A stretch of 64,000 nt of DNA from an uncultured Chloroflexia bacterium (GTDB taxonomy: Bacteria; Chloroflexota; Limnocylindria; Limnocylindrales; CSP1-4): the NCBI GenBank assembly GCA_963813335.1, contig CAWEYL010000001.1, positions 288,001 through 352,000 on the forward strand. The letters run 5' to 3'. How positions within the stretch are numbered: position 1 is the first letter of the stretch; the number at the start of each line of letters is the position of its first letter. Position numbers and translations under genes: made by a program. Of the stretch, positions 16,271-46,658 are shown piece after piece. The notes below the pieces were generated by a model. It searched no databases and had not been told where the DNA came from. It was given only the letters and a program-made list of their open reading frames with translations.

Positions 16271-16391
16271 GCCGGCGGGCTGGGCGGCGCATCCGTGCGT
16301 TGCCCGCTCCGCCGGTCGCTCACGCACCTTGGGGTGCGCTCGCTCCCTTGCTCGCTGGCGCCTTCGGGCTGCATCCGCCCCGCCTGCCGGC
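16271..16391 (+). repeat. Interspersed ~120-bp hairpin element, copy 1
   Basis: Core GCGTTG..CTCCGC..TCGCTCACGCACC-ttgg-GGTGCGCTCGCTCC..TGCTCG..CGCCTTCG shared with 44780-44898 (-) and 46539-46658. Confidence 0.9.
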
Positions 16392-16503
16392 TTCGCGGTA
16401 CTGATGAGGAATCAAGCTGGCCGGCTTCGCGGATCTTGCCAACGTCGTATCGACCCGAGCTCCGGAATCCCGAAATGGGCCCCTTTACCAGAACTGGGGC
16501 CAT

Positions 16504-16531
16504 TTGACAAGATGAGGAATCGCGATATCCT
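16504..16531 (+). promoter_or_regulatory. Sigma70-type promoter for rpoBC
   Basis: TTGACA-N16-TATCCT about 60 nt before rpoB. Confidence 0.7.
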
Positions 16532-16592
16532 ACTCCTTCTGTGAGCGCGGCCCTCTTCCCCCTTCCTAGCCTCCGTCAAGGAGTGGTGCTTC

Positions 16593-19500
16593 ATGCCGTC
16601 TGCCGCTGAGTCGTCGACTCGCGCCCTGACCCCTTCGGGTCGCATCTCGTACGCCCGCATCGACAAGAAGGTCGACGGCGTCAGCTACGAGAAGTTCGAG
16701 ATCCCCAACCTCATCGAGCTGCAGCTCGATTCGTTCGCCTGGTTCGTGGACAAGGGCTTGCGGGAGCTGTTCGACGAGATCAGTCCGATCAAGGACTTCA
16801 CCGGCAAGGTGATGGAGCTCCAGTTCCTGGACTACGAGTTCGGCGCGCCCAAGTACTCCGAGGAGGAGTGCCGGACGAAGGACCTGACCTTCAGCAAGCC
16901 GCTCTACGTCAACGTCGAGCTCCTGATCAAGGAGACCGGCGAGATCCAGCGCCAGCGGGTCTACATGGGCGACTACCCGTGGATGACCGACCAGGGCACC
17001 TTCGTGATCAACGGCGCCGAGCGCGTCGTGGTCAGCCAGCTGGTCCGCTCGCCCGGGGTCTACTACAGCGAGCTCGAGGACCCGGCTTCCGGTCGGATGC
17101 TGTTCTCGGCCAAGGTCATCCCGAACCGCGGCGCCTGGCTCGAGTTCGAGACCAACAACAAGGACCAGCTGTGGGTCAAGGTCGACCGGAAGCGCAAGAT
17201 CGCCGCGACGACCCTGCTCCGCGCCGTCGGCTATGAGCAGAACGACGAGATCGCCGCGTTGTTCAGCGGCGTCGACATCGACGCGGACCACACCTACATC
17301 GCCAACACCCTCGACAAGGACCTGACCCACACCCAGGCCGAGGCCCTCATCGAGGTCTACAAGAAGCTCCGCCCGGGCGATCCGCCCACCGGCGACAACG
17401 CGCGCCAGCTGGTCGAGAGCCTCTTCTTCAACTTCCGCCGCTACGACCTCGGCCGGGTCGGCCGCTACAAGTTCAACAAGAAGCTCGACCCGGTCGCCGA
17501 GCGGCTCAACGCCGAGCTGCCGCGCGACCAGCGGACCATCACTCGCGAGGACATCGCCGCGATCGTCGGCCACCTCATCGAGTGCAACCGCGGACTCCAT
17601 CCCAAGGACGACATCGACCACCTCGGCAACCGTCGCATCCGCGCCAACGGCGAGCTGATCCAGAACGCCTTCCGCATCGGCCTGCTCCGCATGGAGCGGG
17701 TCGTCCGCGAGCGCATGACGATCCAGGAGCTCGACAAGGCGACGCCCAACGCGCTGATCAACATCCGCCCGGTCGTCGCGGCCATGAAGGAGTTCTTCGG
17801 CGGCAGCCAGCTCTCCCAGTTCATGGACCAGACCAACCCGCTGGCCGAGCTGACCAGCAAGCGCCGCCTCTCGGCCCTCGGCCCGGGTGGCCTGTCGCGC
17901 GAGCGCGCCGGCTTCGACGTCCGCGACGTCCACCACAGCCACTACGGCCGGATCTGCCCGATCGAGACGCCGGAAGGCCCGAACATCGGGCTGATCGGCT
18001 CGCTCGCGACCTACGGCCGGATCAACAGCTACGGCTTCATCGAGACCCCGTACCGCAAGGTCAAGCGGACCGTCGGCTTCGACGACGCCGGCCTGGCCGG
18101 CTACGAGGCCGGCTCGGACGTCGTCACCAAGGGCGGCGACGTCGTCCTGAAGGCCGGCCAGACCTTCACGAGCGCGGCCATCAGCGAGCTCAAGAAGCAG
18201 AAGGCCCACGCCTTCCCGATCCGCCCGATCGTGACCGACGACATCGAGTACCTGCCCGCGGACGAAGAGGAGGAGCACGTCGTCGCGCAGGCCAACGCGC
18301 CGCTCGACGACGAGGGCCACTTCACGGCCGAGCGGATCCCGTCGCGCTATCGCGACACCTTCCCGGAGGCCCGCGCCAACCAGATCGAGTACATGGACGT
18401 CTCGCCCAAGCAGGTCGTCTCGGTCGCCACGGCGCTCATCCCGTTCCTCGAGCACGACGACGCCAACCGCGCGCTGATGGGTTCGAACATGCAGCGCCAG
18501 GCCGTCCCGCTCCTCGAGCCGGAGTCGCCGATCGTGGGCACCGGCATGGAGGAGCGCGCCGCGCGCGACTCCGGCCAGGTCCTCGTCGCCCGGCGCGGCG
18601 GCGTCGTCACCAGCGTCACCGCCGAGCGGATCCGCATCGAGACCGATGCTGGCGAGCTCGACGAGTACAAGCTGCTCAAGTTCGTGCGCAGCAACCAGGG
18701 CACCTGCATCAACCAGCGCCCCATCGTGGATGTCGGCGCCCGGGTCCTCGACGGCCAGCCGATCGCGGACTCCAGCTCGACCGAGAACGGCGAGCTGGCG
18801 CTCGGCCGGAACGTGCTCGTCGCGTTCATGAGCTGGGAGGGCGGCAACTACGAGGACGCGATCGTCATCAGCGACCGCCTCGTCCGCGACGACCTCTTCA
18901 CCAGCATCCACATCGAGAAGCACGAGATCGAGTCGCGGGACACCAAGCTCGGTCCCGAGGAGATCACCCGCGACATCCCGAACGTCGGCGAGGAGTCCCT
19001 CAAGGACCTCGACGAGGAGGGCATCGTCTACATCGGCGCCGAGGTCCGCCCCGGCGACATCCTCGTCGGCAAGATCACGCCGAAGGGCGAGACCGAGCTG
19101 ACCGCCGAGGAGCGCCTCCTGCGGGCGATCTTCGGCGAGAAGGCCCGTGAGGTGAAGGACAGCTCGCTGCGCCTGCCCCACGGCGAGCGCGGCAAGGTCG
19201 TCGAGGTCCGCGAGTTCCGTCGCGAGCTCAACGACGACCTCCAGCCCGGCGTCAACCGCCTCGTCCGGGTGTCCGTCGCCCAGAAGCGCAAGATCTCGGT
19301 CGGCGACAAGATGGCCGGCCGCCATGGCAACAAGGGCGTCATCGCCAAGATCCTGCCGGCCGAGGACATGCCCTACCTGCCCGATGGCACCCCGGTCGAC
19401 ATCATCCTCAACCCGCTCGGCGTGCCGAGCCGCATGAACATCGGCCAGATCCTCGAGACGCACCTCGGCTGGGCGCTGCACAAGAAGGGCCTCAAGGCCG

Positions 19501-20072
19501 CCACCGCGGTCTTCGACGGCGCGACGGAGCAGCAGATCCAGGACGAGCTGCGCGAGGCGGGCCTGCCGATCTCGGGCAAGATCGAGCTCCGCGACGGGCG
19601 GACGGGCGAGGCGTTCGACCGCCACATCACCGTCGGCTACATCTACATGCTCAAGCTCCACCACCTCGTCGAGGACAAGATCCACGCCCGCTCGACCGGT
19701 CCGTACAGCCTCATCACCCAGCAGCCGCTGGGCGGCAAGGCACAGTTCGGCGGCCAGCGGTTCGGCGAGATGGAGGTCTGGGCGCTGGAGGCATACGGCG
19801 CCGCCAACATCCTCCAGGAGCTGCTCACCGTGAAGTCGGACGACGTCCTCGGGCGCGTCCAGACCTACGAAGCCATCGTCAAGGGGGAGGAGATCCAGCC
19901 GCCGCGCGTGCCCGAATCCTTCAAGGTCCTGATCAAGGAGCTGCGCAGCCTCGGGCTGAACGCGGAGATCCTGGACCAGAACGACGAGGAGATCCCGCTC
20001 GGCGAGGACGACGCATCCGGATACCTGCTCCCCGATCTCGGCGGGATCAACCTCGCCGGGTTCGAGGACTGA
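16593..20072 (+). CDS. rpoB: RNA polymerase beta subunit
   Basis: [40 protein letters not shown]. Confidence 0.98.
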
Positions 20073-45690: not shown

Positions 45691-46118
45691 ACGTCAAGAC
45701 CATCGCGGTGAAGGAAAGCGAGATCGATCGCCGCTGGTTCGTCGTGGACGCGACGGACGAGACGCTCGGCCGCCTCGCCTCGCGCATCGCGCGGGTGCTC
45801 GAAGGCAAGCACAAGCCCTCGTACCAGCCGAACCTCGATTCCGGCGACCACGTCATCGTCCTCAACGCCGCGAAGATCGCGGTCACCAGCGACAAGCTCG
45901 AATCGAAGCTCTACTCGCGCCACAGCGGCTACCCGCAGGGCTTCAAGCAGGAGACGCTCGGCCACCTGCTCGCCCGCCGGCCGGAGGAAGTCATCCGCCG
46001 CGCCGTCAAGGGCATGCTGCCGCACAACCGCCTCGGGACCCAGCAGCTGCGCAAGCTCAAGGTCTATCCGGGTTCAGATCATCCCCATCAGGCCCAGCGG
46101 CCTGAGCCGCTCGCCTGA
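45687..46118 (+). CDS. rplM: 50S ribosomal protein L13
   Basis: LGRLAS, GKHKP, AVKGMLP. Confidence 0.97.
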
Positions 46119-46135
46119 CAAGGGAGTCCGACCGT

Positions 46136-46534
46136 ATGGCATCGCCCGCATTCTTCTCCGGGACCGGCCGTCGCAAGACGGCGATCGCCCGCGTCCGGCT
46201 GCTGCCGGGCGAGGGTGAGATCGTGGTCAACGGCCGCTCGCTCGAGGAGCACTTCGGCAACGCGGTCAACGAGTCCGAGCTCCGCTTGCCGTTCCGCGTG
46301 ACCGGCACCGAGGGCCGCTACAACGCCATGATCAAGGTCGAGGGCGGCGGCGTGACCGGCCAGGCCGGCGCGATCCGCCACGGCATCGCCCGGGCGCTGC
46401 TGGAGATCGACCCGGAGGGCCACCGCCTGCCACTCCGCCAGGCCGGCTTCCTGACGCGCGACCCGCGGATGAAGGAACGCAAGAAGTACGGCCTGAAGCG
46501 AGCCCGTAAGGCTCCTCAGTACACGAAGCGCTGA
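46136..46534 (+). CDS. rpsI: 30S ribosomal protein S9
   Basis: [24 protein letters not shown]. Confidence 0.97.
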
Positions 46535-46538
46535 CACG

Positions 46539-46658
46539 GCGGCCGCTCCGGCGGCCGATGCGGGCGTTGCCGGACTCCGCCGGTCGCTCACGCACCTCAA
46601 GGTGCGCTCGCTCCCTTGCTCGCCCGGCGCCTTCGCCTCGGGCCGCCGGCGCGGCCGC
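46539..46658 (+). repeat. Interspersed ~120-bp hairpin element, copy 3
   Basis: Same core with loop tcaa; outer stems GCGGCCGC and CCGGCGGCC/GGCCGCCGG. Confidence 0.9.

Follow-up and report, generated by a model that had tools for sequence, protein, structure and literature searches.

Three ribosomal protein genes, rplL, rplQ and rpsI, in a 64,000-nucleotide stretch of DNA from an uncultured Chloroflexia bacterium (assembly GCA_963813335.1, contig CAWEYL010000001.1, positions 288,001 to 352,000; this whole stretch is referred to here as the window) are each followed by a copy of the same structured, non-coding sequence, and the question raised is whether this is a mobile DNA repeat, a single-stranded DNA substrate for recombination or a device that functions in the RNA at the ends of operons. 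From the evidence presented below, the three stretches are probably copies of a non-coding, non-autonomous mobile repeat, comparable in kind to MITEs (miniature inverted-repeat transposable elements) and ERIC elements, that settles behind the stop codons of housekeeping genes. The three copies are

16267..16396, + strand: repeat copy 1, covariance-model match of 86.1 bits, exact core at 16316-16346
44761..44902, - strand: repeat copy 2 (extent of the insert), covariance-model match at 44774-44903 of 108 bits, exact core at 44823-44853
46534..46664, + strand: repeat copy 3, covariance-model match of 94.9 bits, exact core at 46584-46614

All three are at the positions given in a preliminary description of the locus, with the N4 loops (ttgg, ttgg and tcaa), outer arms and GCGTTG, CGCCTT and GCTC blocks reported there, and the gene order also agrees, namely rplL-copy-rpoB, rplQ-copy (reversed)-truA and rpsI-copy-carbamoyltransferase gene. 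Copy 1 begins 11 nt past the rplL stop codon (TAG) and copy 3 at the rpsI stop codon (TGA), both in the sense orientation relative to the gene they follow. Copy 2 lies between rplQ and truA, is antisense to both genes and its 3′-tail touches the rplQ stop codon. The 31-nt core, TCGCTCACGCACC-N4-GGTGCGCTCGCTCC, is exact in the three copies and is found nowhere else in the window when up to three mismatches are allowed, with a chance expectation of 0.00 (100 shuffles). With filters off, the covariance model scores the three copies at 86-108 bits and the next best match in the window at <15 bits; a weak match at 14567-14694, in the rplA-rplJ region, was rejected as a copy.

The covariance model was built from the 12 copies present in the source genome (an assembly of 2.54 Mb in 7 contigs, 72% G+C), with the structure predicted by RNAalifold from a MAFFT alignment. 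The consensus fold is a single long imperfect hairpin, or rod, with 32 pairs, 20 of which have compensatory changes, both sides being altered with pairing retained in at least one copy. Another 107 copies, selected from public genomes by an exact match to the core pattern, were aligned to the model. Of their pair cells, 90.9% are paired as compared with 70.1% after partner shuffling (0 of 500 shuffles reach 90.9%), pairing falls to 26-51% when the partners are slid by 1-3 columns, and double changes are present in 22 of the 32 pairs, for an alignment that is fitted to the model and has its core columns fixed by the search pattern. The unit is about 130-170 bp long and includes an unpaired 3′-tail of 13-19 nt that is part of the inserted DNA. 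The centre is near-invariant, GCGTTG ... TCGCTCA-CGCACC-loop-GGTGCG-CTCGCTC ... GCTC ... CGCCTT, and the arms differ among copies and subfamilies while staying self-complementary. The apex is otherwise invariant, yet has a compensated change, CACGTAC/GTACG, in one genus (L254; loci are designated by L, genomes by G and contigs of the source genome by C). As first proposed, the sequence therefore has a selected or inherited fold and is not a recent local duplication. Also borne out is the observation that the conserved bases are mostly unpaired. Outside the apex they are in internal loops and bulges and, on the gene-sense strand, almost all are pyrimidines, with 20 pyrimidines and 2 purines in the conserved unpaired columns of the 12 copies from the source genome and 18 and 2, respectively, in the 107 from other genomes. 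Free folding was of no help in locating the outermost pair with respect to the stop codon, because GC-rich ends form pairs opportunistically (in 12 of 39, from the very first base given).

The source genome contains the core 12 times and the model recovers exactly these 12, with scores of 86-117 bits and none weaker at E≤1. The search of relatives advocated in the preliminary description was positive in all 24 of the same-genus genomes searched, with 1-34 matches each. In a class-wide draw, for which the copy counts per genome are lower bounds, 35 of 44 genomes of the same family have matches, as do, with weak scores, 10 of 49 genomes from a second family. There are no model matches in 16 genomes of the sister family, which have genomes of 1.0-1.4 Mb, or in the 6 and 50 genomes drawn from two other families of the class. 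Its distribution is limited to a single family in the class Limnocylindria (Chloroflexota). The core is present at at least 122 loci in public records, nearly all in metagenome-assembled genomes labelled Chloroflexia, Chloroflexota or Candidatus Limnocylindrales/Limnocylindria that come from soil, fen, wetland and groundwater. Exact cores are also found in bins labelled Solirubrobacterales, Eisenbacteria, Methylomirabilota and Polarisedimenticolia (L035, L044, L059, L065, L099), which may reflect mis-binning or mislabelling and not spread across phyla.

Comparison with Rfam (release 15), also suggested at the outset, matched the repeat to no described family. Only 4 tRNAs are recognised in the window at the gathering score and, at E≤10, six loci with copies gave just 5 chance-level matches, one of which, to Xoo5 in L092 (18 bits, opposite strand), possibly overlaps a copy, with the other four located off the copies. 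There were no matches in plasmid, phage, E. coli or viral-contig collections and, with copy 1 as the query, blastn (11-base words) found nothing at E≤0.01 in 5,426 complete E. coli genomes. In the portions available, literature listings on Limnocylindria, on intergenic palindromic repeats of Chloroflexi and on CTAG/stop-codon MITEs contain no description of this repeat family. It is apparently an undescribed family, of an already known MITE/ERIC-like kind.

Evidence for mobility comes from orthologous spacers, which were proposed early on as places to look for empty sites and which are indeed filled in some genomes and empty in others. For copy 2, the empty allele is present in contigs of relatives from four soil RNA libraries in which just 'GC' separates 44760 from 44903, and these contigs set the boundaries of the insert. 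At 30 rplQ-truA loci in the genus there are 7 sense copies, with two types of arms, 3 antisense copies including that in the window, 1 antisense remnant and 19 loci without a match, most of which have a spacer of only 5-25 nt. Antisense inserts like copy 2 are found in L230 and L247. With two sense arm types plus the antisense copies, at least three separate insertions must have occurred in this one short spacer. The rplL-rpoB spacer of 30 genus genomes has 12 strong copies, some in other genomes being orthologues of copy 1 with identical outer arms, and 5 weak remnants at the same place, with the rest lacking a match. As judged by eye, L191 retains only the 5′-half, the centre has been swapped for a different small repeat in L192, the outer arms alone remain as a plain hairpin in L195, and several rplL-rpoB spacers without the element carry unrelated plain GC hairpins. 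Comparison of L195 with L190 and L216 could be taken to indicate insertion of the element into the loop of a pre-existing terminator. This was rejected, as internal deletion of a copy is simpler, given that, in the rplQ spacer and in the subfamilies of genome G005, arms and element move together. At the rpsI site, a sense copy is present in 10 of 30 loci, from seven genera of the family. Strong copies are thus present at 12, 10 and 10 of 30 loci behind rplL, rplQ and rpsI, respectively, the presence/absence polymorphism expected of a MITE.

Two side observations concern these spacers. A second small repeat, with the core ...CCGAGG..GAGGCGACGCTC..GCCATCGGCCCGAGG..., is located within or next to the element in the L192, L193, L197, L205 and L211 spacers, is the one that takes over the centre in L192 and has only one clear copy in the source genome (C1, ~832698). 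Mutually similar antisense copies of the element occupy the rplA-rplJ spacer in L200, L202, L214, L217 and L219, where the L10 leader would lie; the source genome has no copy in this spacer.

The most similar non-orthologous pairs, 93% down to 84% alike, are all within G005, and the copies of the 93% pair are flanked by direct repeats, the 7 bp CGATGAC and the 9 bp TCCGATGAC. The corresponding FabZ|phosphoesterase and phosphoesterase|FabF junctions are uninterrupted in the source genome, with overlapping ATGA stop and start codons, so that with duplication of the target both the upstream stop and the next start survive insertion. No obvious target-site duplication had been reported for the window. 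A flank scan likewise detected none at copies 1 and 3, and for copy 2 the comparison was made by eye only. Two partial core matches 2.5 kb apart in G005 were considered as a possible autonomous element and rejected, both being truncated copies behind ordinary genes.

The weak matches in the second family belong to a 180-184-bp element with a homologous centre, designated here the cousin, that is present in genomes G060, G112, G123, G166 and G071 (L287-L310). Its ends are conserved terminal inverted repeats, TAGTGTCGCG.../...CGCGACACTAG, located at CTAG, and in G060 more than 20 such pairs of ends are 165-180 bp apart. The TAG at the cousin junction is the stop codon of the upstream gene in 11 of the 12 copies for which an upstream gene was called, and 12 cousin copies are sense, 4 antisense and 2 uncalled. 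As the centre is shared and the CTAG-capped ends of the cousin are absent from 128 window-type copies, the same centre travels with two kinds of ends. Cousin-type terminal repeats were not found in the three window copies, consistent with the initial statement that these share no terminal inverted repeat. Taken together, the filled and empty orthologous spacers, the independent insertions, the two target duplications and a cousin with terminal inverted repeats uphold, in kind, the REP/MITE-like reading first suggested (REP, repetitive extragenic palindrome).

The remaining copies in the source genome, and their neighbours, are

one copy: between a DegV gene and a glutamate dehydrogenase gene
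two tandem copies: between tRNA-Ser(gct) and tRNA-Arg
one copy: between tRNA-Ser(cga) and tRNA-Ser(gga)
one copy: between infB and rbfA, 13 nt ahead of rbfA
one copy: between a DnaB_C/KaiC-like ATPase gene and a pyrophosphatase gene
one copy: after an open reading frame with a FolB domain, facing a convergent HtrA-like protease gene
one copy: between lexA and dnaB
one copy: after an unnamed frame with a TGA stop

Orientation was evaluated for 61 copies, these 12 plus 26 from G024 and 23 from G005, with the coding strand of the flanks called from the three-base periodicity of G+C over 300 nt. The upstream 300 nt code on the strand of the element in 40 cases and on the opposite strand in 4, about nine in ten being sense. 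The 17 uncalled upstream flanks are tRNA contexts, tandem copies and non-coding flanks. Both orientations do therefore occur, as had been stated, but antisense copies are rare, and the argument that two orientations favour action as DNA or as a bidirectional RNA element fails, because orientation follows the upstream gene. Downstream, the 300 nt that follow also code on the same strand for 21 of the 40 sense copies. Of 39 listed copies that have a stop codon nearby, 27 have the end of that codon between -5 and +7 nt relative to the first position of the model, which places the first paired base ~0-10 nt behind the stop, and copies are located directly behind stop codons or the 3′-ends of tRNAs. 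Pfam named 31 of the 33 upstream frames given for G024 and G005, all of which are core genes and none mobile-element genes, including those for L17, S10, S9, IF-2, RsfS, NuoD, NuoK, the H+-pyrophosphatase, DnaE, Lon and RecA, and also LexA, PurH, CorA, cytochrome b, FabZ, FabF and others. Sense copies lie within the rpsJ-rplC and infB-rbfA gene pairs, and tandem arrays of 2-3 copies occur.

The adjacent stop codons are TGA in 22, TAG in 13 and TAA in 4 cases. A preference of the window-type element for TA or TAG targets was considered and rejected, the excess of TA-containing stops being weak (17 of 39, as compared with ~30% genome-wide). Also rejected was an explanation based on the replicating strand. 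The GC skew on contig C1 is too weak to reveal an origin, and neighbouring copies on opposite strands of one contig each follow their own gene, so that orientation tracks transcription and not the replichore. Two of the sites in the source genome have further features. Immediately after the DegV-gene copy, a 36-bp unit that consists of the 3′-arm plus tail (GCGGGCCCAAGGCAGTTCG...) is tandemly repeated 2.6 times (L001:3067-3158, ~220547-220638 on C1), and there are similar short duplications of arm plus tail in L146 and L159. The FolB-domain frame (L007:3015-4412, - strand; ~22287-23684 on C7) runs into the element and has its stop codon inside the copy. The FolB match covers only positions 1-63 of the 113 in the profile, and the frame is either a composite or a gene whose end was remodelled by the insertion.

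To account for these observations, we propose that the copies spread by transposition catalysed by an enzyme acting in trans, as suggested by the footprints of staggered cuts at the young copies and by a cousin with classic ends. The repeat would then be transcribed within the 3′-untranslated or intercistronic RNA of the upstream gene, and selection would retain only insertions located just past a stop codon, in the orientation in which the hairpin does little harm to, or helps, the messenger. In a compact genome with 72% G+C, the first bases after a stop codon may be among the few sites at which an insertion breaks neither a gene nor a promoter. The sense transcript is predicted to carry the weaker hairpin, with the pyrimidine loops, and the antisense hairpin to be ~10 kcal/mol stronger. 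That a sense bias is also seen with the cousin, despite symmetric ends that should insert randomly, suggests that selection acts on the form of the transcript. The conserved centre is a candidate binding site for a host factor or for the transposase, or could have a role at the RNA level, for example in 3′-end protection or processing.

By architecture, and as judged by analogy with known kinds, the repeat is closest to ERIC/IRU elements and to MITEs that target TA or CTAG. The latter, of the IS630/Tc1-mariner or IS5 type, include RUP of Streptococcus pneumoniae and the Correia/NEMIS elements of Neisseria, which are similarly small, non-coding, palindromic, present as tens of dispersed copies and co-transcribed with their neighbours and, as with MITEs, the window-type element has filled and empty sites in related genomes. 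The cousin matches such MITEs feature for feature, having terminal inverted repeats as well as a junction, CTAG/TA, at which a TAG stop codon is rebuilt. In contrast, the window-type element has no conserved termini or TA preference, has an unpaired 3′-tail and target duplications (7 and 9 bp) at only two young copies, is conserved at its centre and not at its ends, and no parent insertion sequence with matching ends was found among the matches listed for the incomplete genomes G005 and G060. The ERIC/IRU elements of enterobacteria are imperfect palindromes of ~127 bp with a conserved central inverted repeat, located in transcribed intergenic regions. They resemble the repeat in size, in forming one long imperfect hairpin with a central conserved core, in their location in transcribed spacers of core operons, in being possible in both orientations and in having no known transposase. 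They differ in being from a different phylum and in sequence, to the extent that blastn of copy 1 against E. coli genomes, and not comparison with the ERIC consensus itself, can establish this, and the repeat has a much stronger orientation bias and a tighter adjacency to stop codons. Integron attC sites are imperfect palindromes of 57-141 bp with conserved R and L boxes at their ends. Like the repeat, they immediately follow an open reading frame and have a constant orientation to it, have an arm structure that is more conserved than its sequence and have one strand that folds better, but the repeat is conserved at its centre with variable ends, and it is flanked by core genes, ribosomal protein and tRNA genes among them, whose synteny is conserved. 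REPs, as outlined in PMC3733652, are palindromes of 20-40 bp, most with a GTAG or CGTC tag. The repeat shares with REP, BIME and REPIN sequences an extragenic location, a palindromic form with compensated stems, the occasional arrangement in tandem and suggested functions in stabilising messengers or in termination. The repeat is, however, four times longer, has no GTAG or CGTC tag at the ends of the 107-copy consensus, and no Y1 transposase (RAYT) is encoded in the 25 element-bearing genomes searched. It is not a REP/RAYT system or an Rfam family nor, by its pattern of conservation and its neighbouring genes, an attC site.

Several results weigh against a transposable repeat of the MITE/ERIC kind. 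The terminal repeats of the cousin are absent from 128 window-type copies, which therefore lack the shared termini of a MITE; the cousin motif was present in 3 on the 5′-side and 1 on the 3′-side, as compared with 1 and 7 in a swapped control. Thirty-eight sense copies were tested for flanking repeats and, with the two young G005 copies set aside, the other 36 show no more of these than a control with mismatched pairs. The Y1 domain (PF01797, REP-associated/IS200) is present in 0 of 41 genomes, including 25 that bear the element, with the same search positive in 6 of 14 controls. IS110, TnpB, reverse transcriptase, rve and DDE_Tnp_1 are all absent from the source genome and from G024, which is 92% complete and has 26 copies, and the source genome also has no DDE_3 match. 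In G005, the genome with the youngest copies and the most transposase genes, no copy is located beside the seven transposase loci, the best score (20.5 bits) being in coding sequence outside the insertion sequence. The check for copies flanking a transposase gene was negative at these loci, and the REP/RAYT variant is not supported. As the genomes searched are incomplete bins, the failure to identify a mobilising enzyme does not prove its absence. The preliminary description had noted the lack of a cognate enzyme in the window, which is correct, and no such enzyme was identified in the source genome as a whole.

Folding adds further difficulties. For 148 full-length copies, RNA parameters predict a more stable fold for the complementary strand than for the gene-sense strand in 137 (mean difference, 10.2 kcal/mol), and DNA parameters do so in 141. 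For the three window copies, the folding z-scores are -5.5 to -6.3 for the complementary strand and -3.0 to -4.2 for the sense strand. This prediction arises because the conserved pyrimidine loops become tandem G-A mismatches on the complementary strand. In the variable helices, G-U pairs outnumber A-C mismatches by 195 to 83, but 139 of the G-U pairs come from two columns and the remainder are 56 versus 83, so these counts do not favour a sense RNA and, without those two columns, are ambiguous. A conserved centre with variable ends is the opposite of the typical MITE and hints at a function beyond transposition. This centre is conserved across two bacterial families in which the ends and the footprints differ, which a purely selfish MITE does not predict, and the centre may serve the host, as a binding site or as an RNA module. 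Finally, the metatranscriptome evidence is in the form of unstranded contigs, which cover the region and contain the empty alleles of relatives, and so does not speak for transcription of the element; a drop in the summed metatranscriptome depth after 46679 was rejected as evidence.

In five element-rich, contiguous genomes, IS110 is present in one, rve in three and DDE_Tnp_1 in one, with no TnpB above the cut-off and no reverse transcriptase. Weak model matches beside two IS5-like transposase genes in G005 were rejected, as they too are in coding sequence outside the insertion sequence. G005 has a 1.85-kb IS5-like insertion sequence, present as two copies that are 85% alike (L284:1231-3081 and L285:2229-4077), with terminal inverted repeats of 55-59 bp and CTAG at both ends, that is unrelated to the repeat. 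For the cousin, no pairs of ends 1-2 kb apart are present among the matches listed, and cousin ends do not flank the IS630-type gene in G060.

Given these difficulties, three other explanations have to be weighed. It is unlikely, in our judgement, that the repeat is primarily an RNA device of the host, a portable 3′-end module with a hairpin that protects or processes the upstream messenger, by blocking 3′-exonucleases, by providing a site for a double-strand RNase or as a scaffold that shows its pyrimidine loops to a factor such as Rho, with mobility only the route of its distribution. Such a device would explain the bias of 40 sense to 4 antisense copies, and of 12 to 4 for a cousin with symmetric ends, the retention of the centre across two families that have different ends and target duplications, the dominance of pyrimidines (18-20 versus 2 purines) among the conserved unpaired bases, the location behind highly expressed genes and tRNAs, the plain GC hairpins that replace a missing element behind rplL in several genomes and the element-rich genomes that lack the seven transposase families tested. 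It accounts less well for copies that are decayed or absent in many close relatives with no visible replacement (the 5 rplL remnants and 19 of 30 rplQ loci without a match), for a sense strand with the weaker hairpin and for A-C mismatches as frequent as G-U pairs in the variable helices, and metatranscriptomes consisting only of contigs provide neither transcript ends nor levels. It is quite improbable that the invariant pyrimidine-looped centre is a portable 3′-untranslated or intercistronic RNA module in use by the host and carried by two transposition vehicles, that would be kept past stop codons because the terminating ribosome, or a reader of YC-rich loops such as Rho or a double-strand RNase, acts there. 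The vehicles would be the inverted repeats capped by CTAG in the neighbouring family and, in the family of the source genome, a form with no terminal repeats that generates 7-9 bp duplications.

That the repeats are intrinsic, factor-independent terminators for operon ends in a very GC-rich genome is very unlikely. Their position right behind stop codons and tRNA ends, a promoter-like site of rpoB's own downstream of copy 1 and tails that weakly contain T (tail motifs in 18 and 9 of 59 copies, as compared with 8 and 2 in upstream controls) are what such terminators would show. In agreement with the initial report that there is no U-tract, however, none of the three window copies was called as a canonical hairpin-plus-T-run terminator, the tails having only scattered T residues, and a terminator has no need of invariant internal loops. 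The sense copies in the rpsJ-rplC spacer and 13 nt ahead of rbfA are in operons that require read-through, and 21 of the 40 sense copies are followed by 300 nt coding on the same strand. Together with the lack of T-run calls, these positions argue that the repeat is not a strong terminator and the termination role initially entertained is, in its strong form, unlikely. Scarcely credible is a role as the single-stranded DNA substrate of recombination of the REP/RAYT, IS200/IS605 or integron-attC type. An imperfect palindrome with conserved unpaired bases, two strands that fold unequally, tandem arrays of 2-3 copies and the equal tolerance of G-T and A-C mismatches expected if both DNA strands matter would suit such a substrate. 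But Y1 is missing from all 25 element-bearing genomes with the controls positive, the length is 130-170 and not 20-40 bp, there is no conserved end tag, and orientation follows the local gene and not the region of the contig. The attC variant, also raised initially, is contradicted by the conservation of the centre, as attC sites are conserved at their ends, and by neighbours that are core genes and not cassettes. The target duplications of 7 and 9 bp fit transposition with a staggered cut instead.

Around the three copies, the features of the window are

15866..16255, + strand: rplL (ribosomal protein L7/L12), upstream of copy 1; Pfam Ribosomal_L12 and Ribosomal_L12_N
16504..16531, + strand: promoter-like site TTGACA-16-TATCCT ahead of rpoB, downstream of copy 1; promoter scan, 10/12 matches
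44408..44761, + strand: rplQ (ribosomal protein L17), upstream of copy 2; Pfam Ribosomal_L17
44788..45690, + strand: open frame containing truA (tRNA pseudouridine synthase); Pfam PseudoU_synth_1, frame residues 190-286
46136..46534, + strand: rpsI (ribosomal protein S9), upstream of copy 3; Pfam Ribosomal_S9
46795..47751, + strand: ornithine/aspartate carbamoyltransferase gene, downstream of copy 3; Pfam OTCace and OTCace_N

The true start of truA is downstream of copy 2, and the conserved start region of the gene is visible in the aligned spacers of relatives. Just ahead of truA, at ~44905-44930 in the window and in L221-L249, there is a small hairpin with a GAGA loop and a stem that varies by species yet remains complementary (e.g. 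gcgctc/gggcgc and ggcagtc/gactgcc), which probably holds the ribosome-binding site. By eye, the promoter-like site ahead of rpoB (TTGACA, 16-17 nt, TATCCT) recurs in most of the rplL-rpoB spacers L190-L219, and rpoB is preceded by a conserved leader that ends in AAGGAG before the ATG. With its own conserved promoter-like site and leader, rpoB looks to be transcribed separately from rplL in this lineage.

These results add a repeat family to Limnocylindria, a large uncultured soil lineage, together with a covariance model that finds its copies. Its recognition keeps the spacers that it occupies from being mistaken for small RNAs, terminators or genes, and is of use in judging assemblies, as repeats break contigs. 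If the centre were a module in use by the host, the repeat would not be mere selfish DNA but a mobile element domesticated to regulate highly expressed operons. As a mobile repeat of the MITE/ERIC kind, which we consider the probable explanation, it would provide a clear case of small mobile elements being directed, by a compact and very GC-rich genome, to the positions immediately past stop codons, in one orientation.

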